DNA of 64,000 nucleotides from Flavobacteriaceae bacterium. Its GTDB lineage: Bacteria > Bacteroidota > Bacteroidia > Flavobacteriales > Flavobacteriaceae. The notes under the pieces are model-generated. The model was given only the letters and a program-made list of their open reading frames with translations. It was not told where the DNA came from and did no database searches. The translations under genes and the position numbers were made by a program. Below are positions 39,582 through 57,378 of the stretch, piece after piece. Location: assembly GCA_043557195.1 (NCBI GenBank), contig CP121314.1:4137582-4201581 (forward strand). Reading direction: 5' to 3'. Within the stretch, counting starts at the first letter, position 1. Each line of letters opens with the position of its first letter.

Positions 39582-40412
39582 CTACAACTTTAATTCTTCA
39601 AGGATTTTTTGACTGTTAAGCTGAAGATGTTTTGGCAGTTTATTAAACTTGGGTAAAACAGCTAAATACCTATCATCATTAGTCGTGTACACTCTTTTAT
39701 AATGTGCCTTTTCGTTTAATTCTAAAGATGTTATAATATCTTTAATAAACTCATCATGATGTACCAAATCAGAACTTCCTAAATGAAACACACCGTATTT
39801 ATTTCTATTGATGATATAGTGAATTTGTTGCGTTACTTTAGAATCTGTAGTAACGTTCATTATCAAATTTGGGAAAATTTCAATAGGTTCTTTTTCCTTT
39901 ATATGTTGAAGCATTTCATTAATTCTCGGAGACTGATTACCAAAAACCATAGGTAATCTCAAAATTGCAACTTGTTTCTTTGGCAAGCGCAATAACATGT
40001 TTTCAATCTTTATTTTGAAATGCCCATAAACACTATTACTCAAGGTTTTATCTTGCTCATAACTTGGGTATTTACTGTAAGCGTCAAAAACATTAGCAGA
40101 AGATAGAAACAGTAATTTTATGTTTTGTACATATATGTATTCTGAAAGATGTTGATGTAATAACACCTGTTTAGAAAAATCACCACGCAATGCCGAAATT
40201 ATTATTGTTGGCTTTACAATATTCAGGATCTCGTAGATATCATCTTCTTCAAAATTATACTGAAAGAAATGATGGTTTTTTTCTAGTTGTTTATTTGAAG
40301 TGCTATAGGTTGCAAAGGTTCTGAAATAGGAGCAGAGTTCCTTGTAAATAGCGCCACCCAAAAAACCACTACCACCAAGTATTAATATTTTATGTTTATA
40401 GGCCTCCTTCAT
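39582..40412 (-). CDS. NAD(P)-dependent sugar-nucleotide epimerase/reductase-like protein (RmlD-like)
   Basis: N-terminal Rossmann motif ILILGGSGFLGGAIY and an SDR-extended-like length. Confidence 0.6.
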   Translation of the reverse strand: MKEAYKHKILILGGSGFLGGAIYKELCSYFRTFATYSTSNKQLEKNHHFFQYNFEEDDIYEILNIVKPTIIISALRGDFSKQVLLHQHLSEYIYVQNIKLLFLSSANVFDAYSKYPSYEQDKTLSNSVYGHFKIKIENMLLRLPKKQVAILRLPMVFGNQSPRINEMLQHIKEKEPIEIFPNLIMNVTTDSKVTQQIHYIINRNKYGVFHLGSSDLVHHDEFIKDIITSLELNEKAHYKRVYTTNDDRYLAVLPKFNKLPKHLQLNSQKILEELKL

Positions 40413-40436
40413 TCGCTTTCTACACCAAAATACGGT

Positions 40437-41519
40437 TTAGCCCTTGTAAAATGGTAGCTTTACAACAGTTGCAGGTACTGCTTTTTTTCTAATTTGAATA
40501 TTGATTTTACTACCAGCATCAGCAAAAATAGGAGGGACGTAACCCAAACCAATACCTTTACCTAATGAAGGGGCCATAGTGCCAGAAGTAACGTTTCCGA
40601 TGGTGTTTCCATTACCATCTACAATATCGTAACCATGACGTGGAATACCGCGGTCATCCAATTCAAAACCGACTAATTTACGTTCTGGTCCGCGTTCTTT
40701 TTCAGATTTAAGCGCTTCAGAATTTGTAAAATCTTTGGTGAATTTGGTAATCCAACCCAATCCAGCTTCAATGGGAGAGGTGGTGTCATCAATATCGTTG
40801 CCGTAAAGACAATAGCCCATTTCTAAACGCAGTGTGTCTCGTGCAGCAAGCCCAATAGGCTTTATGCCATAATTTGCACCAGCTTCTAATACTTTATTCC
40901 AAATTTGTTCAACCTCGCTGTTTTTACAATAAATTTCGAAACCACCGCTACCAGTGTAGCCTGTAGCCGAAATAATTACATAATCAATCCCTGCAAAATC
41001 GCCAACCACAAAATTGTAGAATTTAATTGCAGATAAATCTTCACTGGTTAAAGCTTGCATCGCTTCAACCGCCTTTGGGCCTTGAATAGCGAGTAGGGAA
41101 TAGTCCGCACTCAAATCGCGCATAGTAGCGCCAACATCGTTTTTAGACTGAATCCAATTCCAATCTTTTTCGATATTACTAGCGTTAACCACTAGAAGAT
41201 ACGTTTCTTCTTTAATGCGATAGATAATTAAATCGTCCACAATACCGCCTGTATCATTAGGTAAACAGCTGTATTGCGCTTTACCAATGGTAAGTTTTGA
41301 AGCATCGTTACTAGACACGTTTTGAATAAGTTCTAATGCATGCGGACCTTCAATTAAAAATTCACCCATATGCGACACATCAAACACACCAACGCCGTTT
41401 CGTACGGTTTCATGTTCTAGATTCACACCTTCGTATTGTACAGGCATATTATAACCGGCAAAAGGCACCATTTTAGCACCAAGCGCTTCATGAATTTTAG
41501 ATAAGGCTGTATTTTTCAT
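40437..41519 (-). CDS. gcvT: Glycine cleavage system aminomethyltransferase T
   Basis: 360 aa with FAGY.MPVQY, DVSHMG, RD.LRLE and GYV motifs. Confidence 0.95.
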
Positions 41520-41750
41520 AGCATTTAATTATCTTTTGTAAGTATGTAAACTATAAGGAAGCACATTAGTAAAATGCAAAAACCAACAATAATTCTATGT
41601 TTTGGTTTAAAGAAGGAAATAATGTTTTCAAAAAAATTCCCTAAAAACTTTATAATGCCAACTAATATGTCTTCCATAAATGTGGTACACAAATGTATTG
41701 AAATTAAAAAGATTTTTAAATGTGAAAAGGGGAAGTATTTTGGAGACGTG

Positions 41751-41853
<103 letters not shown>

Positions 41854-41934
41854 TCCCAGAAGCATTTGTTTTCATAAGTATAATTGGAACTTGGGTCATT
41901 AAACTAATAAGCGGTTTGCTTCGCAGCGTTTTTA

Positions 41935-41990
41935 AAACATTATGTATCTATAATTAGCCGTTATGTAAAATAGCCGCTACCAAGCGCTCG
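41935..41990 (+). repeat. Island junction repeat, left-arm copy (R1a)
   Basis: Matches the right end of the R4 module (57308-57362), including the core TTATGTAAAATAG. Confidence 0.6.
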
Positions 41991-42402
41991 ATTGTTTTAT
42001 AAAATCAAATTGCTCTGGCAATTTATTTTACACACAATTTTCCAACGCTTGCCAACGCCAAAATAAAAGCTAACCTTTTTGCTCTTATTAAAAATCGCGT
42101 ATTCGATAAAATGTACGTAATAAAAAATTTTAGACGATTCTCGTGAGCTTGCCACAAGAGCATAAATTTTAAGAAAAATAAAATTCTATGCACTTGTTAT
42201 ATGTAGAACTTCAATTAATCATTTTTTCCTTATTTCATTATCTTTTGTCTTGAAACAAAAGAAACAAAAATTCAAGGCTGCATATAATTTTGGAAACAAT
42301 TAACGGCTCATTCGCTATATTTTAGGAAACATTGTAATTCGTTAAGATTGTTTTGAAATCCATTGTATAATTGAAATTCTAAAGAAACTATATTACTAAA
42401 CC

Positions 42403-42490
42403 CCTAAAATATGGACGCTCATTTCTCCTATTGTTTTAACCAAAATTTTATGAGGCCAAGGTAAACATCGAGATTCTATTTTACATAATA
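42403..42490 (+). repeat. Island junction repeat, right-arm copy (R1b)
   Basis: CTAAAATATGGACGCTCA...CCAAAATTTTATGAGGCCAAG...TTCTATTTTACATAATA aligns with 46693-46779. Confidence 0.6.
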
Positions 42491-42539
42491 TTATAATTTC
42501 ATATAGCCTTATATTATGAAAAATGAAGTTTAAATTAGA

Positions 42540-42668
42540 TCACTTTCTTTTGCGTTTAGGCGGCTTTAGTGATGGCGTGTTTCCTGGTGTGTCCTTGTTG
42601 TCACGTGCTCGCCTATCTGGTTTTCCAGTAGATTTTGCAATTCTCTTCGGTCCTGGTTTAAGTCCCAT
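42540..42668 (-). CDS. Possible small, highly basic 42-aa protein downstream of the S8 protease gene
   Basis: Hand translation gives MGLKPGPKRIAKSTGKPDRRARDNKDTPGNTPSLKPPKRKRK*. It is below the ORF-track cutoff, and the segment is more GC-rich than its surroundings. No homology was assessed. Confidence 0.2.
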   Translation of the reverse strand: MGLKPGPKRIAKSTGKPDRRARDNKDTPGNTPSLKPPKRKRK

Positions 42669-42744
42669 AATTTTTGTTTTTAATTAATAATTCAAATATT
42701 TAATCACTTTCTTTTTAATAGCATTTCGTTATGCTTTAATTGGT

Positions 42745-45111
42745 CTAATTATTTTTACCTTTAACATCAATTCTAATCTCTTCTCTTAATTTAATGTTAG
42801 AGTGTAAAAAGTTTCTATCTGCCAACAATCTCGATACTTCATTGTAAACTTGATGTTGCCCTTTGGTATCTCTAATTGTAACGACTAAAGTAAAATCTTG
42901 ATTTAAAACCTCTCCATCTTCTTTTGATCTAGTTTCTGCAAAATCACGATATGTTCCTTTTATTTTAGCATACCACTTTCTATTACTTGCTAAACTATCT
43001 CTTTGTCTTGCATCTTTCATTTCACTTAAATTAACCGAATATTTTTTTACTGGCTGATACTTTTTTCCATAATTCAGTAATACTCTTTCTCTTGCGTAAT
43101 CACTTTCTGTGTCTTTTATATAGGCACTTTTGTAATTAGAATCCAAAAGTACATTTTGGGTGTCATCTGGCCCAAAAGGGTTTAATATATTAGATTTAGT
43201 AGTATCTCTATCTTTTATGTTTTCATATGTACCAAACATTAAGTCTAAATTAGATTGACAATACTCTGCTCCTTGTTTTTCTCTTAAAACTGGTTGAGCA
43301 ACTAAAGTAACTTTTACTTCTCCATAAAAGTGCCCATCATCATCAATTAAACTTTCAGGAAATGGAAAGTCAAGAATCTCGATAAATTCACCTTTATTTA
43401 TGTTTTCTTGAAGAATTAAGGTAATTTCATGAGGATCGTTATAAATAATCTCATCGGCCGATGATGCTATTCCAAAACCCATTTGATTGACTTTTTCATT
43501 AATAGGAAAATTTACACCTAATGGATATTTCGCTGAATGTATTGCTAAAGCCTTAAGCAATGTAGGATTAAATTTTTCTCTTACTTTAAAATTTAGTTCA
43601 GATAACAACGATGTAACTCTAGGTGTTGAAAAACTTGTACCTATTATTTTTACTGGAGCTCCATCTGGCGCAATTGCTTTTACTCCATTTTCTACTCTTC
43701 TACCTCCATTCATACCAGCGTTGCCTCCATAAGAAACTAAATCTGGCTTTATACTATTTGCTGGTCCAGGACCAATACGAGTAAAAGGAGATGGATGATT
43801 TACATCAGCTATATCATTTCCATTTTTAGAATGTGCAATTGAACCAACCACTAAAGAACGAATTGAATCACCAGATCTTGCTATTCTGCTTTTAGGAAAA
43901 CCTCTTTCAAAATTTCTACAGTTCCCTGTGGACTTGCAAATAATTACCTCATTAGATATTTGAATATCGTCAAGTGCTTTCCCGAAATCAGAAAAGTCAT
44001 TTAAATCTGCTTCAGATTTAGTTCCTAAAGATAGGTTCCAGATTTTAATATCAGAATTCTTTTTTATTGCTTCTCTAATATTTGCAATTAACTCATCTTC
44101 ATCTATGCTTTCTTTAGTTTCATCTGGAAAAACAGTTGCATCAAAAAGTTTACAACCTGAATTTCCAGTCCATTTTTCTCCTTCTAAATCATCACCATAA
44201 ATAATAATACTTGAAACACAAGAACCATGTGTTGGATTGACTAAATCTTCAGGATAAGACGAGAAATTTCTATCAAGAAGCCAAGGACTTAAGTACTGAT
44301 TCTTTGCTATACCTGAATCAAGAACTCCAATTATTGGGTATTCTTCATCTTTGATAGGTTCTTTTACTTCAATGTCCTGTCCAGAATTTAGCAAGTCCAT
44401 ACCAACACTATATTTTGGCATAAATGTTATGGATTCTAAAGCTTCAAAATCACTAATGCTATCTAATTGGGCTTTGGTAGCGTTTTTAATTTTATAAATT
44501 ATTAAGCCAGAAGAATAATTTGCTTCTACCACATCAATACTCTTTTGCTTACAGTACTTTTCAAATGATATTTTGACAGCATTATTTATTTCATAATTCA
44601 AAAAATCTATGAGAGAAATTTTTACTGTCTCATTTTTTTTATTTTCTTCAATATCAGCAATAAAAGGTTCGAATATTTCTATTGTTTCGACAGCAGAAAT
44701 GGCTTTAGGGTTTCTATGATAATTATTAATGTTTTTCTTAATGACTTTGCTATCTTCAATACTGTCAACTTTTACTATAGCACTATTTGAATCAATAAAA
44801 CCAATTATATTATTTTTTGAAAATTGTCCATTAAATAGCTTTTGAATATCTTGTCTGTGTGATTTTGCAATGGCATTATCATCAATATCAATACGTAATG
44901 TAGCAGGAATAAAACTCCTTGTGTTATCTCGGTTTTCAAAAAAAGTATCTAATTCACTTAAAGGCTCTAAAAGACTATTTGCTCTTTCTTGAAGTTCTTC
45001 TCCATGAAGTTGCCATTTAGGAATTGTTTTACTGCCTCCACCTTCGACTCTCCTATCGTCTACTTTCTGTCTTTTCTGAAATAATTTTACAGGTAAATTC
45101 TTTTTAGCCAT
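42745..45111 (-). CDS. Cytoplasmic S8-family subtilisin-like serine protease with large N- and C-terminal extensions (IetS-like)
   Basis: Catalytic triad contexts IGVLDSGI (Asp), NPTHGSCVSSII (His) and IIGTSFSTPRVTS (Ser). There is no signal peptide (MAKKNLPVKLFQKRQK...). The ATG lies 1 nt after the stop of the upstream ATPase gene. Confidence 0.85.
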   Translation of the reverse strand: MAKKNLPVKLFQKRQKVDDRRVEGGGSKTIPKWQLHGEELQERANSLLEPLSELDTFFENRDNTRSFIPATLRIDIDDNAIAKSHRQDIQKLFNGQFSKNNIIGFIDSNSAIVKVDSIEDSKVIKKNINNYHRNPKAISAVETIEIFEPFIADIEENKKNETVKISLIDFLNYEINNAVKISFEKYCKQKSIDVVEANYSSGLIIYKIKNATKAQLDSISDFEALESITFMPKYSVGMDLLNSGQDIEVKEPIKDEEYPIIGVLDSGIAKNQYLSPWLLDRNFSSYPEDLVNPTHGSCVSSIIIYGDDLEGEKWTGNSGCKLFDATVFPDETKESIDEDELIANIREAIKKNSDIKIWNLSLGTKSEADLNDFSDFGKALDDIQISNEVIICKSTGNCRNFERGFPKSRIARSGDSIRSLVVGSIAHSKNGNDIADVNHPSPFTRIGPGPANSIKPDLVSYGGNAGMNGGRRVENGVKAIAPDGAPVKIIGTSFSTPRVTSLLSELNFKVREKFNPTLLKALAIHSAKYPLGVNFPINEKVNQMGFGIASSADEIIYNDPHEITLILQENINKGEFIEILDFPFPESLIDDDGHFYGEVKVTLVAQPVLREKQGAEYCQSNLDLMFGTYENIKDRDTTKSNILNPFGPDDTQNVLLDSNYKSAYIKDTESDYARERVLLNYGKKYQPVKKYSVNLSEMKDARQRDSLASNRKWYAKIKGTYRDFAETRSKEDGEVLNQDFTLVVTIRDTKGQHQVYNEVSRLLADRNFLHSNIKLREEIRIDVKGKNN

Positions 45112-45112
45112 C

Positions 45113-46201
45113 TTATTCTACATTTAATGCGTTTCTAACTTGTCTTATTGAAATATCTAGGTAATTAGCTATTTGTTTTTGAGGTATATGGCTCTCATTT
45201 AAAAAGCGTATCATTTCTTCTGGTGTAAATCTGTTATTGTTCTTATACTTGAAGTATTCAGAAAAAATTTCATCGTATTCGAATTCTTTATTTTTAATAA
45301 TTGAATTATAAAATGCACTATTTATTATCTTAATAATTTCAGAATGTGAGAAATCGTTTAAGTAAGAAGAAAGTGTATCAAATTTCTTATCTTCTATATC
45401 TAATTTAGAATCTACCTTGTCAAAATAACTTCCAATTAGATTTTTAATTTCTTCAGAACTTGGCTTGTTTACATTAATTACTTTTTCAAACCTTCTCCAG
45501 ATAGCACTATCTAATAATTGCTCATGGTTTGTTGCTGCTATTAATATGCCAGTCTCTAGAAAATCGTCAATATTTTGCAATAAGCTGTTTATTACTCTTT
45601 TTAATTCACCAGTTTCATGATTATCGTCTCTTGCTTTTGCAATTGCATCAAATTCATCTAGAAATAAAATACAAGGTTTACTCTTTGCATAATCAAATAA
45701 TTTTCTAATATTTTTTGCCGTATTACCTAGAAGTGATGATATCAAAGAATCAAACCTAGCTACTACAATAGGTATATCAAGTTCTTTAGCTATATGTTTG
45801 GCTAATGTCGTTTTACCACAACCTGGAGGTCCATAAAGCAACAATGATAAATTCATTTGTAAACCTTTACTTTTTATTTCATTTTTAGAATTAACTAAAG
45901 AGATGAAATTGTTTACTGGATTTTGGATACTTTCAGAAATTGAAATATCTAATTTTATATCTCGAGGAAGAATTACATCTGCAATGTTTAACCTTGTATC
46001 ATTATCTACAGGTGCATCAAATAATTGGTCTTTGAAAACAGGAATTGCTGTTGAGCCTTCAATAGTCTTTATTATTTTATCAGCAAGTTTATCTGCTCCA
46101 TCTTCTCTTAACTTTTTAGCCAAGTGTTTAGAATAACTAATAACCTTTTTTGGGTCTTGATTAAGACCTCCTTCAATTATTTTAATGAGCTCTGTATACA
46201 T
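45113..46201 (-). CDS. AAA+ ATPase with a C-terminal helix-turn-helix-like tail (IetA-like)
   Basis: Walker A LLLYGPPGCGKTT (aa 124-131 = GPPGCGKT), Walker B ILFLDEFDAI, sensor-1 AATNH, RRF arginine region, and C-terminal QKQIANYLDISIRQVRNAL. Confidence 0.85.
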   Translation of the reverse strand: MYTELIKIIEGGLNQDPKKVISYSKHLAKKLREDGADKLADKIIKTIEGSTAIPVFKDQLFDAPVDNDTRLNIADVILPRDIKLDISISESIQNPVNNFISLVNSKNEIKSKGLQMNLSLLLYGPPGCGKTTLAKHIAKELDIPIVVARFDSLISSLLGNTAKNIRKLFDYAKSKPCILFLDEFDAIAKARDDNHETGELKRVINSLLQNIDDFLETGILIAATNHEQLLDSAIWRRFEKVINVNKPSSEEIKNLIGSYFDKVDSKLDIEDKKFDTLSSYLNDFSHSEIIKIINSAFYNSIIKNKEFEYDEIFSEYFKYKNNNRFTPEEMIRFLNESHIPQKQIANYLDISIRQVRNALNVE

Positions 46202-46232
46202 GTATCTGTAATATTATTTTTGATTTACGTTA

Positions 46233-46240
46233 CAAATATA
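46233..46240 (-). promoter_or_regulatory. Candidate Bacteroidota -7 promoter box upstream of the ATPase gene
   Basis: The minus strand reads TATATTTG, matching the TAnnTTTG consensus, 32 nt upstream of the ATG at 46201. No clear -33 TTTG element is present. Confidence 0.3.
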
Positions 46241-46358
46241 TGTAAAAATGTAATATAAATACATTAAAACGCAATATTTTTATACATAATCGTAATAATT
46301 GTTTTTGATTGTGTGGTGATTATTAGTTACTACATTGACAAATAGAGCTTTATAATCC

Positions 46359-46777
46359 ATTCCACACACATTATGCTTCCCTCCTACGTCGTCGCATAAA
46401 AAGTGTTCCATTAACATTGTAGAAGAAACTTTTAGAATAAATTTTTGAAGAAACTGTAGTAACAACTTTCGCTTTTAACCAAAGCTCAAGTTACACTTCG
46501 ACTTCGCTCAGTGCAGGCTCCACGCAGAACATTATAGTACATTATACAACAATAAGCATAATAGCGCTTTTGGGCGATATTTGACATTATTGCAGATATA
46601 ACAACACATAGTGTTTTATATCGTTTGCAATTATGTCAAGCTAATTGTGGCATAGTTAGACAAATTAAAATGCATCTATAATTAGCCGTTATGTAAAATA
46701 TAGACGCTCACTTCGCCTTAATGTTTTACCAAAATTTTATGAGACCAAGTTTAACATCAAAATTCTATTTTACATAA
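46359..46777 (+). repeat. Island inter-module repeat R2 (conserved non-coding module plus 89-bp palindromic junction)
   Basis: Colinear with 56945-57343, with identical runs of 75 and 84 nt by manual alignment. It lacks a segment of about 56 nt that R3 and R4 carry. It ends with TTATGTAAAAT (46689) ... ATTTTACATAA (46767). Confidence 0.8.
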
Positions 46778-46811
46778 TAAAGTTCGTTAATTAATATTCA
46801 AACAACTTAAA

Positions 46812-47390
46812 CTATGATCTAACTCTATCTATTTTACGAAACCCAATTATTTTTTCTTTTACAAGAGGAATTCTTATCAAAAATCCAATACCCACAATTA
46901 TAGCATAAATTAGCCAAGTTTTTTCTAAAAGGGCTACATGTAATAAACTTAGAAATATAGCTACATAAGAGAAGCTTTGTAATTTTTTCCAATTTACTTT
47001 TAGTCGCTTCATGGATTTTCTATTGGATGTAAAAAATAAAGGAATTAAGATTAAAACTGCTATAAATCCTGCAATATAGTTGACTTGTGTAAACGTTTCA
47101 ATAAATCCTTCTGCTACAATAAAAATAATGAAATGTAAAAAACTCCAAACTGCAGTTGCAATACCCATGGCCTGCCTTACAAAAAGATTATTGATGCCAA
47201 AGAGAATAAAAAACGGTGTACATGTTAATACGGCTGTCATCCAACGTATGGCAAACTCTCCTGAAATATGGTACAACATATCTAAATTCTCCTCACCTCC
47301 TTCTAAGGTCATCTTCAATAATGGAATCATGGGTAGTAGCGCTAATATTGTAACAATCATCCATCCATAATTCTTTTTTATAAACTTCAT
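46812..47390 (-). CDS. Small polytopic membrane protein (possibly a ferric-reductase-like/YedZ-like heme-binding TM domain)
   Basis: 192 aa, about 5-6 TM helices, with conserved-looking His residues in TM segments (SFLHFIIF, SLLHVALL). The family call is tentative. Confidence 0.45.
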   Translation of the reverse strand: MKFIKKNYGWMIVTILALLPMIPLLKMTLEGGEENLDMLYHISGEFAIRWMTAVLTCTPFFILFGINNLFVRQAMGIATAVWSFLHFIIFIVAEGFIETFTQVNYIAGFIAVLILIPLFFTSNRKSMKRLKVNWKKLQSFSYVAIFLSLLHVALLEKTWLIYAIIVGIGFLIRIPLVKEKIIGFRKIDRVRS

Positions 47391-47397
47391 ATTAATA

Positions 47398-48027
47398 TTA
47401 TTTCCTAATAGTGATTAATACAACCTTACCATTAAATTGAGGTTGTAACTGATACTTATGATTTTCACCAATGGTTGCTAAAAATTCTTTTGTTTCCTTC
47501 ATATCTGCATTATCAACATAAATTATTGTTTGAGAATGAAAATTTGGTTCAAGCATTTGAAATATAGGTAAGTATAAATCTTTCCAACCATCTAACAACA
47601 ATAAGTCAATGGGTTCATCATAATTTTTTAAGGTATCTAGAGCGTCACCTATTCTTACCTCAATATGTTTGCTCACTCCTGCCCTTTCAAAGTTTTCAAT
47701 TGCTTTTTTCGCTTTAGATTCAAGTAATTCTGTGGTAATTATACGTCCACCAGTTTCAATGACACCTTGAGCTAAAAATAGCGTAGATATACCAAATGAA
47801 GTTCCAAATTCTACAATCTTCTTTATGCTATTTTCTTTGATAATGCATTTTAAATCTTCTCCTTGTTCTTTCGAAATGGATAGGTAAGCATCTTTGAAAT
47901 CTAAAGGTTGCATTGGCCTAAAAACGCTTTTTGCAGCACCTTTCATCATTTTTAGCATGTCGTATTTTGAATCTTCAAAGAGTTCGTTTATGGTTGTTGT
48001 GATTCGATTTTGCTGTAAGGTTATCAT
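47398..48027 (-). CDS. Class I SAM-dependent O-methyltransferase (family 3-like)
   Basis: Motif I VEFGTSFGIST, followed by LLLDGWKDLY, which is typical of caffeoyl-CoA-type OMTs. Confidence 0.75.
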   Translation of the reverse strand: MITLQQNRITTTINELFEDSKYDMLKMMKGAAKSVFRPMQPLDFKDAYLSISKEQGEDLKCIIKENSIKKIVEFGTSFGISTLFLAQGVIETGGRIITTELLESKAKKAIENFERAGVSKHIEVRIGDALDTLKNYDEPIDLLLLDGWKDLYLPIFQMLEPNFHSQTIIYVDNADMKETKEFLATIGENHKYQLQPQFNGKVVLITIRK

Positions 48028-48099
48028 ACTTTCTGTTTTAAAAAAGAAGGAATATCAAAAGTATTTTGATATTCCTTCATGCTATTAATCACTAATTAA

Positions 48100-49566
48100 T
48101 TAAAATTTTCCGTTAGTATTCTTCCACTCAGATTCTGCCGGAATTGGCGCAATGACATCCCAATGTTCTACTATTTGTCCATCTTCTATTCTAAACAAAT
48201 CGTAAAAAGCAGTGTGTTCACCTTTGCCAAACTTGCCTTCACTCATACTTAAAACAAAGTTGCCTTGTCCCATGACTTTATGAAGTTTTGTATATTCCAT
48301 AACCAATCCATTTTCAGCAAAATATTGCATTGCCGCACCAAAGCCTTCTAATCCATCTGCTACTGCTGGGTTATGCTGAATGTAGTTTTTAGGATTAATA
48401 TAGGTTGCTACTTTATCCATTTCGTGATTTAATAAGACATTGGTTATAAAATCTGTAACTACTGTTTTATTAGTTTCTGTTTTATCTAAATCTGTAATTT
48501 CAGTTGCTCCATCAAATTGCGTTCTACCACTTGGATTCGGTTTTTGAACTGGTAATAAATTATCCCAGTGTTCTACAATTAAACCATCTTCAAAACGAAA
48601 TACATCAAAACCCGCTTTTGGTCCAAAAAAATCATATTCTGTATGCGTAAACACATAATCTCCATCTTCAAAAGCTCTAACAACATTGGCCTTAAAACCG
48701 CCTTCTGGCGCATGATGCATAACGTCGCCAAAACCTGCTAATCCGTCTCCAACAGCTAAATTATGCTGAATGTATTTGTTAGGGTTTATATACGAAATTG
48801 GTGTTTGATCTCCAGTATTAAAACTGTTTAATAATGCGACTACTTTGTCTTTGTTTGATAATTCCATCTTTGTGTTTTTTAATGAGTTAAGTGTTTGATA
48901 ACGTCCCATTGAAATGGACGATTGATTCATCATACCCATAAATTCTTTGGATATGGCATTGTTCATAAATGGTTGTAAGGCTGCATCAGAATGGCTTTTG
49001 TTATCCCAATAAACAGCAACAATTTGCTCCCCATTTTCATTGACACCAGTAATGCGTTGTAAAAATCCAGGTTGTTTGGCTGTAAAGCCTTTTTCTACTC
49101 TTTTATTAATTTTATTAAATGCCTTCATGTCAATATCTGTTTTTGTTTCAAAAGACATGACTTCAATAAAATTACTTTTAGTAGCATTAAATTTGTCTTC
49201 AATAACATAACGAGACATTTTCATAGAAGAACCTTCAATCATAGAAGCATAATCTGCTACAGAAGGATCTGTCATAAATTTTTCCATTGATGCTTTGGCA
49301 TTTTCAAGAGTTTCCCAATTAACCAAAACAACATATTCTCCATTTTCATTTATCCCACTTTGGCGGCTAATAAATCCTGGTTGTTTATTAGTAAAGGTGC
49401 TTTCAATTTCGGCATCTAATGTGTTAAAAGCCAAAGTATTTGTGATAGATTTTGTTTTAAAAGTAGTTACCTCTAAAACAGATTCAGTTTTAGTTTCGGA
49501 ACAACTACTTACAAGTAATAGGATTACTCCTATTAGAATTAATTTCGATTTAAAATACATCATCAT
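48100..49566 (-). CDS. Lipoprotein with two ABM/Dabb-like domains followed by two SnoaL/NTF2-like domains
   Basis: Internal duplications: two copies of (T)NKQPGF(I/L).R..G(I/V)NENGE..V.V.W, and two copies of YINPK/NKYIQHN.AV.DGL.GFG...F(R/F)(F/I)EDG.IVEHWD. The lipobox (LLVSSC) follows the internal Met cluster at 49566. Confidence 0.6.
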   Translation of the reverse strand: MMMYFKSKLILIGVILLLVSSCSETKTESVLEVTTFKTKSITNTLAFNTLDAEIESTFTNKQPGFISRQSGINENGEYVVLVNWETLENAKASMEKFMTDPSVADYASMIEGSSMKMSRYVIEDKFNATKSNFIEVMSFETKTDIDMKAFNKINKRVEKGFTAKQPGFLQRITGVNENGEQIVAVYWDNKSHSDAALQPFMNNAISKEFMGMMNQSSISMGRYQTLNSLKNTKMELSNKDKVVALLNSFNTGDQTPISYINPNKYIQHNLAVGDGLAGFGDVMHHAPEGGFKANVVRAFEDGDYVFTHTEYDFFGPKAGFDVFRFEDGLIVEHWDNLLPVQKPNPSGRTQFDGATEITDLDKTETNKTVVTDFITNVLLNHEMDKVATYINPKNYIQHNPAVADGLEGFGAAMQYFAENGLVMEYTKLHKVMGQGNFVLSMSEGKFGKGEHTAFYDLFRIEDGQIVEHWDVIAPIPAESEWKNTNGKF

Positions 49567-50584: not shown

Positions 50585-50828
50585 CACACATTATGCTTCC
50601 CTCCTACGTCGTCGCATAACAAGTGTTTATTCACGAGGTTAATATTGTTTTAGAGGAGTTCATGCATCTCGTAAACTCGATGTCATTAACATCGTAGAAG
50701 AAACTTAAGAGAATAATTTTTTTAAGAAACTGTAGTAACAACTTTCGCTTTTACAAAAGCTCAAGATACATAACGCGGAACATTATGATACAGATTAATC
50801 ATTATCATAATCAGTCATTATGTAAAAT
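50585..50828 (+). repeat. Island inter-module repeat R3 (shortened variant)
   Basis: The first 215 nt or so are colinear with R4, including a 63-nt identical run. The remainder is deleted or diverged. It ends at the core TTATGTAAAAT (50818). Confidence 0.75.
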
Positions 50829-56938: not shown

Positions 56939-56944
56939 TTATAA

Positions 56945-57362
56945 CATTCCACTCGCATCATGCTTCACTCCTACATCGTCGCATAAAAAGTGTTTATTCA
57001 CGAGGTTAATATTGTTTTAGAGGAGTTCATGCATCTCGTAAACTCGATGTCAATAACATTGTAGAAGAAACTTTAAGGAATAAATTTTTTTTAAGAAACT
57101 CTAGAAAGAACTTTCGCTTTTAACCAAAGCTCAAGTTACACTTCGACTTCGCTCAGTGCAGGCTCCACGCAGAACATTATAGTCATTTTACAACAATTAG
57201 CGAAATAGCGCTTTTAGGCGATATTTGACGTAATTGCAGATATAACAACACATAGTGTTTTATATCGTTTGCAATTATGTCAAGCTAATTGTGGCATAGT
57301 TAGACAAATTAAAATGTATCTATAATTTGACGTTATGTAAAATAGCCGCTGCCAAACGCTAG
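56945..57362 (+). repeat. Island inter-module repeat R4 (full-length copy, ending in the right boundary direct repeat)
   Basis: Colinear with R2 and with the 5' part of R3. Core TTATGTAAAAT at 57333, followed by AGCCGCTGCCAAACGCT as at 41972. Confidence 0.8.
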
Positions 57363-57378
57363 AAGAGCTTCGTTGGGT

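Follow-up and report, generated by a model that had tools for sequence, protein, structure and literature searches.

IetAS was reportedly described as an anti-phage system by Gao et al. 2020. In the account of Yamamoto et al. 2009 that is relayed in PMC13069673, it is a pair of a toxin (a serine protease) and an antitoxin (an AAA-ATPase) that stabilises the plasmid pTiC58, with phage defence recognised later, and the relaying article adds that the protease activity is needed for defence, that an ietA mutant could not be constructed and that the mechanism is unknown (PMC13069673). The Bacillus cereus ietAS has an abortive-infection phenotype and is toxic upon expression of yosG of phage SPbeta (10.1101/2022.08.27.505566), and homologues from both Escherichia coli and B. 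cereus protect against phage (PMC13069673; 10.1101/2022.08.27.505566). In Mycoplasma, an AAA-ATPase/S8 protease pair of 353 + 757 amino acids (aa) is a functional chromosomal toxin-antitoxin with direct repeats at its flanks (PMC8562856). Here, we describe a pair of this type in a stretch of 64,000 nucleotides (nt) from a Flavobacteriaceae bacterium, referred to as the window (GCA_043557195.1, contig CP121314.1, positions 4,137,582 to 4,201,581 of the forward strand). Judged from its sequence, the pair, ietA and ietS, is a canonical IetAS module of a diverged Bacteroidota clade and no new variant, and we consider it very probable that the locus as a whole is best explained by an IetAS module with toxin-antitoxin and abortive-infection character that arrived by recent transfer.

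Both proteins match the IetAS profiles of PADLOC over their full length. IetA matches PDLC02196 (E=9.3e-136) with residues 1-360 of 362 against profile positions 3-369 of 374, IetS matches PDLC02201 (E=0, 1134 bits) with residues 1-783 of 788 against positions 1-779 of 781, and with two full-length matches a chance match is excluded. On one strand, ietA is directly followed by ietS, an arrangement that together with the two profiles is how PADLOC and DefenseFinder define IetAS. The NCBIfam models IteA and IteS (NF042959 and NF042956) are the top family matches, and for IetS the sole one, with nearly full-length alignments, and full-length PHROG families exist for each of the two proteins. A protein named iteS by the Prokaryotic Genome Annotation Pipeline (PGAP) on a Dongshaea marina plasmid aligns to IetS residues 1-780. 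The combination of near-full-length alignment with NCBIfam scores below the cut-offs points to a diverged clade with the same architecture. From such scores PGAP is expected to assign generic names, as in the source annotations, and a Flavobacteriaceae pair that carried just the names “AAA family ATPase” and “S8 family peptidase” can now be annotated as IetAS.

An earlier note on this DNA had proposed an IetAS-like module and a profile search on both proteins as the check, and the proposal holds up, with the PADLOC profiles matched end to end, the pair co-conserved and its position a variable, horizontally acquired spot. The note was also right about the unnamed flanks, Pfam giving no name to ~110 aa at the start and ~40 aa at the end of the ATPase or to ~250 aa at either end of the protease, but its suggestion that these domains mark an uncharacterised variant is not borne out: the PADLOC and NCBIfam profiles cover them and relatives carry them, so that the “extra” regions are part of the family architecture. 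The motifs that it quoted in a 362-aa ATPase and a 788-aa protease were all found intact. Besides Walker A and Walker B, IetA has AATNH at residues 222-226 and WRRF at residues 235-238, and the catalytic residues of IetS stand in the contexts VLDSGI (D265), HGSCVSS (H295) and GTSFSTP (S493), with N397 as the oxyanion residue. The set of ATPase motifs (Walker A, Walker B, sensor 1 and arginine fingers) and the Asp/His/Ser triad with its oxyanion Asn are complete. Pfam places AAA on IetA residues 120-244 and Peptidase_S8 (PF00082, E=1.5e-27) on IetS residues 258-528. Among the 37-38 homologues aligned, the most distant of which are ~47-48% identical, G124, P126, G127, G129-T131, L179, F180, D182-D185, A222-H226 and W235-F238 of IetA are invariant columns, P125, C128, I178 and L181 are nearly so (90% or more), and all four catalytic residues of IetS are invariant. 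The junction reads ...GAA TAA g ATG GCT..., and the protease thus begins 1 nt past the ATPase stop, as the note had said. Inspection of the IetS sequence revealed no signal peptide and no lipobox; the N-terminus (MAKKNLPVKLFQKRQKVDDRRVEGGGSK...) is strongly charged and has no hydrophobic core, so IetS is expected to be cytoplasmic, in agreement with the intracellular location that the note had predicted.

In every context examined, six of them outside the window, an ATPase of 362-374 aa directly precedes the protease. The 1-nt gap is also found on the Winogradskyella eckloniae chromosome, in a Salegentibacter conjugative transposon in which ietAS adjoins TraG, TraM and RteC, in a Sphingobacterium integrase island and on a Rhizobium Ri plasmid, and on the Dongshaea plasmid ietA and ietS overlap. 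Co-occurrence across genomes, which the note had listed as something to check, is therefore seen in the same order and mostly with the same gap in very different genomes. The window pair is like the described IetAS/IteAS systems in gene order, translational coupling, full-length architectures and profile matches, and it differs from them as a diverged Bacteroidota clade with 27.7% identity to the Dongshaea IteS and scores below the NCBIfam cut-offs. The Ti/Ri plasmid type was compared through the homologues of pRi_26-59 rather than the pTiC58 proteins, and consists of a 374-aa ATPase, a 1-nt gap and a 752-aa S8 protease. Its IetA is 33% identical from residue 5 onward and has a PVDxxSRL motif and a helix-turn-helix (HTH)-like tail at the end, and its IetS aligns in the catalytic and C-terminal domains (24% identity, E=7e-29), whereas the N-terminal ~240 aa are too diverged for BLAST; the pRi pair is plasmid-borne and the window pair chromosomal. 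By its description, the Mycoplasma pair TA132/133 (PMC8562856) has similar sizes, the antitoxin upstream, no intergenic region, a chromosomal location and flanking direct repeats, in a different phylum. The ietHAS system (Liu-DS4; IetAS plus an SNF2 helicase, PMC13069673) has the same IetA/IetS core, but no helicase open reading frame (ORF) adjoins the window pair, for which the next upstream gene on the same strand encodes a 192-aa membrane protein without a Pfam match.

The pair is a mobile unit at a break in synteny. At the DNA level, W. eckloniae matches window positions 42403..46408 with 96.5% identity and the Salegentibacter element matches 42763..46493 with 80%, whereas the neighbouring GcvT is only 85% identical to W. 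eckloniae at the protein level, with a best value of 90% among the species genomes returned. By its neighbour proteins, the closest species found is Hyunsoonleella pacifica (GcvT 90%, YebC 96%). None of 80 related Flavobacteriaceae gcvT loci contains ietAS. The order gcvT-epimerase-PCD-YebC is kept on one side only, in many of these loci; on the other side of gcvT no window gene is common to any of the 80, which places a synteny break directly upstream of gcvT (window 41520..46811) in all 80 related species. The genes for the 192-aa membrane protein, an O-methyltransferase, a 510-aa SnoaL-like protein and an AraC regulator are found at none of the 80 loci, and in W. eckloniae, where ietAS occupies a different locus, a SnoaL-like homologue (61% identical) lies next to it. 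Given the 96.5% DNA identity of the cassette against 85% protein identity of GcvT, and its absence from all 80 gcvT loci, the arrival at this break was horizontal and recent. By these comparisons the cassette is a ~4-kb unit, recently acquired upstream of gcvT and placed between non-coding repeat copies, and IetAS moves between genera as such a unit. A tRNA-linked island is excluded, as the window has no tRNA genes.

The cassette probably has a promoter of its own. The -7 promoter consensus of Bacteroidetes is TAnnTTTG, and the box TATATTTG upstream of ietA fits it. The box sits inside a block, TATATTTGTAAC.TAAA, that is invariant in four ietAS loci, including that of Sphingobacterium with 50% IetA identity, and the near-palindrome TTACATATATTTGTAA surrounds it within 46202-46300. 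The upstream region is common to W. eckloniae up to 46408 and to the Salegentibacter conjugative transposon up to 46493. A scan for sigma-70 promoters and terminators gave results at background level and is uninformative for a Bacteroidota genome.

In the reading that we prefer, IetS would be an intracellular subtilisin-type protease that is toxic when free, and IetA, an AAA+ ATPase of the classical clade, would keep it harmless using ATP. IetS would be kept inactive jointly by its own N-terminal module and by IetA acting with ATP; disturbance of IetA by a phage product or by phage DNA would free IetS, and the infected cell would arrest or die before phage release (abortive infection). The same module would also act as a toxin-antitoxin addiction cassette. 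To this scheme the locus contributes family membership, intact motifs, co-conservation, cytoplasmic location, mobility and recent transfer, and what comes from the literature on homologues is the assignment of toxin and antitoxin, the requirement for the protease active site, the abortive-infection outcome and the triggering by a phage protein. An analogy is offered by cyclic-oligonucleotide-based anti-phage signalling systems (CBASS), in which the AAA+ remodeller Trip13 acts as a negative regulator and uses ATP to hold an immune effector in the off state. IetA has a secondary PADLOC match to TRIP13 (E=8e-18), which we treat as likeness to Trip13-HORMA and not as membership, as the window pair has no HORMA protein or cyclase and its effector is a protease.

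The AlphaFold2 (AF2) model of IetA has a predicted local distance difference test (pLDDT) score of 83.6 and consists of an N-terminal three-helix bundle (residues ~1-110), in which a PVDxxxRL-type motif at 64-71 is invariant, the classical AAA core with its lid (~118-320) and a C-terminal tail. The closest solved relatives by Foldseek and PDB searches are p97, FtsH, Vps4, PAN and Rix7. In the HMMER alignment, SLLG of the pore loop falls on KYVG of Rix7 D2, with Leu at the usually aromatic position, and S155-G159 and T161 are invariant within the family. The HTH-like tail that the note had pointed out is supported: four HTH families of Pfam match it weakly, the model has helices at 327-336, 341-348 and 352-359 with a block-mean pLDDT of >90 up to residue 360, and R353, Q354 and N357 are invariant. 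A tail of this kind also ends the IetA of the Rhizobium pRi type (ARILGVSRQAIYAYL) and of Dongshaea. It may bind DNA, either for autoregulation of the operon, as in classical antitoxins, or for sensing.

The AF2 model of IetS (pLDDT 83.1, predicted template modelling score 0.87) places an N-terminal region before the catalytic domain and a β-rich domain after it, the latter aligning with the C-terminal part of the Rhizobium-type IetS. The N-terminal region begins with a conserved peptide at residues 6-26, continues with a long helix at 37-59 and two β-α-β-β-α-β units at ~70-146 and 163-230, and closes with a conserved FMPKY at 230-234. The peptide (LPxKxFxKR..D.R..EGGG, minus strand, 45034..45096) is largely invariant over the Bacteroidota clade sampled: the first 26 residues are approximately as conserved as the catalytic domain, all of 38 sequences share L6, P7, K9, F11, K13, R14, D18, R20 and E23, and part of the motif can still be recognised in the Dongshaea IteS. 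A search of IetS residues 1-245 against 1.84 billion representative proteins returned 243 clusters only, and the best matches listed are to the N-terminus of ~750-820-aa proteins or to shorter ones that mostly match from their first residues and are presumably fragments. By sequence, IetS had no match among PDB chains at E up to 0.01, and hence no IetS structure has been solved.

By structure, the top Foldseek matches of IetS are pro-form or multi-domain subtilases, namely ProN-Tk-SP (3afg, 3e-18), SubHal (5fax), fervidolysin (1r6v), pro-subtilisin E (3whi), PCSK9 and EpiP, and mature subtilisins reach ~4e-9 only. As a structural analogy, these best matches (pro-subtilisins, PCSK9 and Tk-SP) keep a propeptide and/or a C-terminal β domain, whereas IetS has no detectable I9 sequence similarity, is cytoplasmic and has an N-terminal region of ~245 aa with two units. 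The conserved Tyr234 stands 31 residues ahead of D265, and in subtilisin BPN' an equal distance separates D32 from the P1 Tyr of the propeptide. The N-terminal region of IetS may be a tandem propeptide-like autoinhibitory module, the units of which would block the active site, and peptide 6-26 could be the handle by which IetA acts on them, or possibly a pseudosubstrate. The HTH tail, present family-wide, would couple this control to DNA, through autoregulation or sensing of phage DNA. If true, this would be the first concrete mechanism for IetAS. Targets for mutagenesis are peptide 6-26, the two propeptide-like units ending in FMPKY, the non-aromatic pore loop and the HTH-like tail, all of which are family-wide and none specific to this locus; the tail is conserved from Rhizobium plasmids to Bacteroidota.

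Several observations weigh against this account or parts of it. The NCBIfam equivalog cut-offs are missed by both proteins (IetA 356 vs 510 bits, IetS 358.8 vs 900). No recognisable defence island surrounds the pair, the neighbours being the O-methyltransferase, the SnoaL-like protein, the AraC regulator, a permease and GcvT. Anti-phage activity of the Bacteroidota-clade IetAS in this host is an extrapolation from homologues. For the autoinhibitory module, the Foldseek results are whole-chain summaries that do not specify which domains are superposed, the IetS N-terminal region has no Pfam I9 match even at E up to 10, and hhalign of its units against the subtilisin BPN' and E propeptides gave a probability of <1%. 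For IetA, a pore loop that is not aromatic weakens the picture of a simple threading unfoldase, and the tail matches to Sigma70_r4_2, HTH_11, HTH_8 and HTH_23, co-located as they are, remain sub-threshold in Pfam. Further, hhalign of the two IetS units against each other gave no signal, and Pfam on isolated N- and C-terminal fragments returned nothing meaningful except the weak HTH matches of the IetA tail.

Table 1 Features of the ietAS locus, with positions in the window
Feature	Position	Strand	Basis
ietA, 362-aa AAA+ ATPase, putative antitoxin/regulator	45113..46201	-	ORF call, PADLOC, Pfam, AF2
Walker A GPPGCGKT, IetA residues 124-131	45809..45832	-	motif and conservation
Pore-loop-1 equivalent SSLLGNT, IetA residues 155-161	45719..45739	-	HMMER alignment, conservation
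Walker B ILFLDEFD, IetA residues 178-185	45647..45670	-	motif and conservation
C-terminal HTH-like three-helix tail, IetA residues 327-359, including IANYLDISIRQVRNAL	45125..45223	-	AF2, Pfam, conservation
ietS, 788-aa cytoplasmic S8 subtilase, putative toxin/effector	42745..45111	-	ORF call, PADLOC, AF2
IetS-specific N-terminal region, residues 1-245	44377..45111	-	conservation, AF2, protein search
S8 catalytic domain, IetS residues ~258-545 (D265, H295, N397, S493)	43477..44340	-	Pfam PF00082
β-rich C-terminal domain, IetS residues ~546-788	42748..43476	-	AF2 strands
-7-like box TATATTTG	46233..46240	-	31 nt upstream of ietA ATG
Upstream non-coding region travelling with the cassette, including the first ~145 nt of repeat Y	46202..46493	-	
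42-aa basic micro-gene MGLKPGPKRIAKSTGKPDRRARDNKDTPGNTPSLKPPKRKRK, 76 nt downstream of ietS	42540..42668	-	adjoins module, membership unproven
Repeat element X, ~735 nt, non-coding, downstream border of cassette	41756..42490	+	direct core copies TTCTATTTTACATAATA at bounds
Upstream repeat block: Y 46350-46700, then X right-end copy 46694-46779	46350..46779	+	

The cassette is bordered by two repeats. Element X ends in a core of 17-18 nt (TTCTATTTTACATAATA), which flanks X as a direct repeat in most copies, with diverse outer flanks. In a sample of 80 marine-metagenome loci there are at least 27 full-length copies (74-94% identity), and X is widespread in marine Flavobacteriaceae metagenomes. 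No ORF is kept in more than half of the copies; features of the element are a left subterminal hairpin whose loop varies, an inverted core copy (TATTATGTAAAATA) and an internal stem with compensatory changes. An Rfam scan of 40000-48500 at E up to 0.1 gave no match, and no recombinase was seen near X. The window has three cores in the same orientation, at 41756, 42474 and 46763. X lies between the first and the second, and the second and third enclose a unit of 4289 nt with a 42-aa micro-gene, ietS, ietA, the promoter region, the repeat Y and 86 nt that match the right end of X (46694-46779 against 42405-42490, 87% identity) and carry the third core. Repeat Y (~350-430 nt) has three copies in the window, at 46350-46700, 50585-50770 and 56939-57363, with 90-93% identity; from the copy that precedes ietA, 56 nt are missing at 46408. 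In loci L001, L002, L110, L112 and L151, ietAS is accompanied by the first ~145 nt of Y. Y and X have modules in common, e.g. ...CTATAATTAGCCGTTATGTAAAATA, and ietS stands beside X in 4 of the 80 X loci only. The note had described an AT-rich cassette between repeated junction modules. The repeats are real, but the AT-richness is only modest: the GC content of the cassette is 30.0% against 33.5% for the window, within the lowest 4.3% of 4-kb segments, and the GC content at third codon positions is 0.165-0.171 against 0.23-0.29 in adjacent genes, with two nearby genes equally low.

Locus L112 (7283-12173), on a metagenome contig, has the same framework as window 41756-46700, that is, a Y-like repeat, X, the micro-gene, ietS, ietA and a Y-like repeat, at 82-88% DNA identity, among surrounding genes that differ from those of the window. 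Its IetS and IetA are only 56% and 59% identical at the protein level, and such diverged genes within 82-88% identical flanks suggest that ietAS alleles are exchanged or replaced between conserved non-coding flanks. Two other identities of the repeat were considered and rejected. Against a phage att site, five viral contigs have only the 12-mers of the 86-nt repeat, with its body not matched; against an integron attC, the repeat has inverted cores that are wrongly arranged on inspection, and there is no integrase among the neighbours examined.

These flanks also bear on whether the pair serves the host at all. It could be mainly the selfish addiction (toxin-antitoxin) remnant of a mobile element, kept because its loss kills and with no useful anti-phage role here, an explanation that we take seriously and nevertheless consider somewhat unlikely. 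IetAS was first described as a plasmid-stabilising toxin-antitoxin, its Mycoplasma homologues are chromosomal toxin-antitoxin pairs, and the cassette is solitary, with repeat elements on its flanks and no defence genes adjoining. It resembles a fragment of a conjugative transposon, and ietAS with the micro-gene is also found in elements with TraG, TraM, DUF932, SSB and RadC. However, addiction and defence are not exclusive, as the E. coli and B. cereus homologues give phage protection, and in the window both genes are intact, with invariant active sites and a conserved promoter box. Divergent ietAS alleles in the same L112 framework moreover suggest turnover under selection, which is typical of defence genes.

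The micro-gene is the other feature that could set this locus apart. It is truly coding, given that 10 of 11 substitutions relative to L112 are synonymous, that DNA conservation is confined to the ORF and that its codons are adapted to the host (GC-rich in Xanthomonas). It is the only credible gene in the ~1.2 kb between gcvT and ietS. The search returned 292 clusters at 80-100% identity from Flavobacteriaceae, Bacteroidales, Xanthomonas and Aliarcobacter, usually in mobile or variable regions beside an integrase, resolvase or transposase. No Pfam, NCBIfam or PHROG family matches it, and a literature search found KPGPKRIAK in no paper. A distinct IetAS variant, defined by the extra domains or by the micro-gene as a third component, would fit with its position on the same strand 76 nt past ietS with no predicted terminator between, and with its presence beside ietAS in W. 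eckloniae, L110, L151 and L164 and beside the diverged ietAS in L112. We nevertheless regard such a variant as very improbable: the family profiles extend over the extra domains, the ietAS loci of Salegentibacter, Sphingobacterium, Dongshaea and Rhizobium lack the micro-gene, Xanthomonas, Aliarcobacter and Aquimarina have it without ietAS, and in conjugative-transposon contigs a three-gene Multi_ubiq/ThiF system stands between ietS and the micro-gene. Least credible of all, and extremely unlikely, is that IetS is an exported or housekeeping protease served by a chaperone of its own, for quality control or nutrition and unrelated to defence or addiction. S8 proteases of Flavobacteriaceae are often secreted degraders, and AAA+ proteins in the clade of IetA are common partners of proteases (FtsH, PAN); yet IetS lacks both a signal peptide and a lipobox, the pair has a patchy, horizontally transferred distribution (absent from the 80 related loci, present in plasmids, conjugative transposons and phage families), and the full-length matches are specific to defence models.

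With the IetAS module of toxin-antitoxin and abortive-infection character retained as the preferred reading, the more detailed proposals built on it are best taken as one tentative set. That IetS is controlled as a zymogen through its N-terminal peptide by IetA and through the HTH tail by DNA, that X and Y mediate movement of the cassette or exchange of its alleles, and that the micro-gene has a role in mobile defence slots is, taken jointly, unlikely to be right in every part.

In the conjugative-transposon contexts (L002/L003, 10927-13252; L180, 2355-4647), ietAS is directly followed by Multi_ubiq, 119-aa and ThiF (E1-like) genes. The micro-gene comes after this trio in these contigs and before DUF932, SSB and RadC. 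The trio may be a ubiquitin-like defence system, and its position after ietAS suggests a cargo or defence slot in conjugative transposons.

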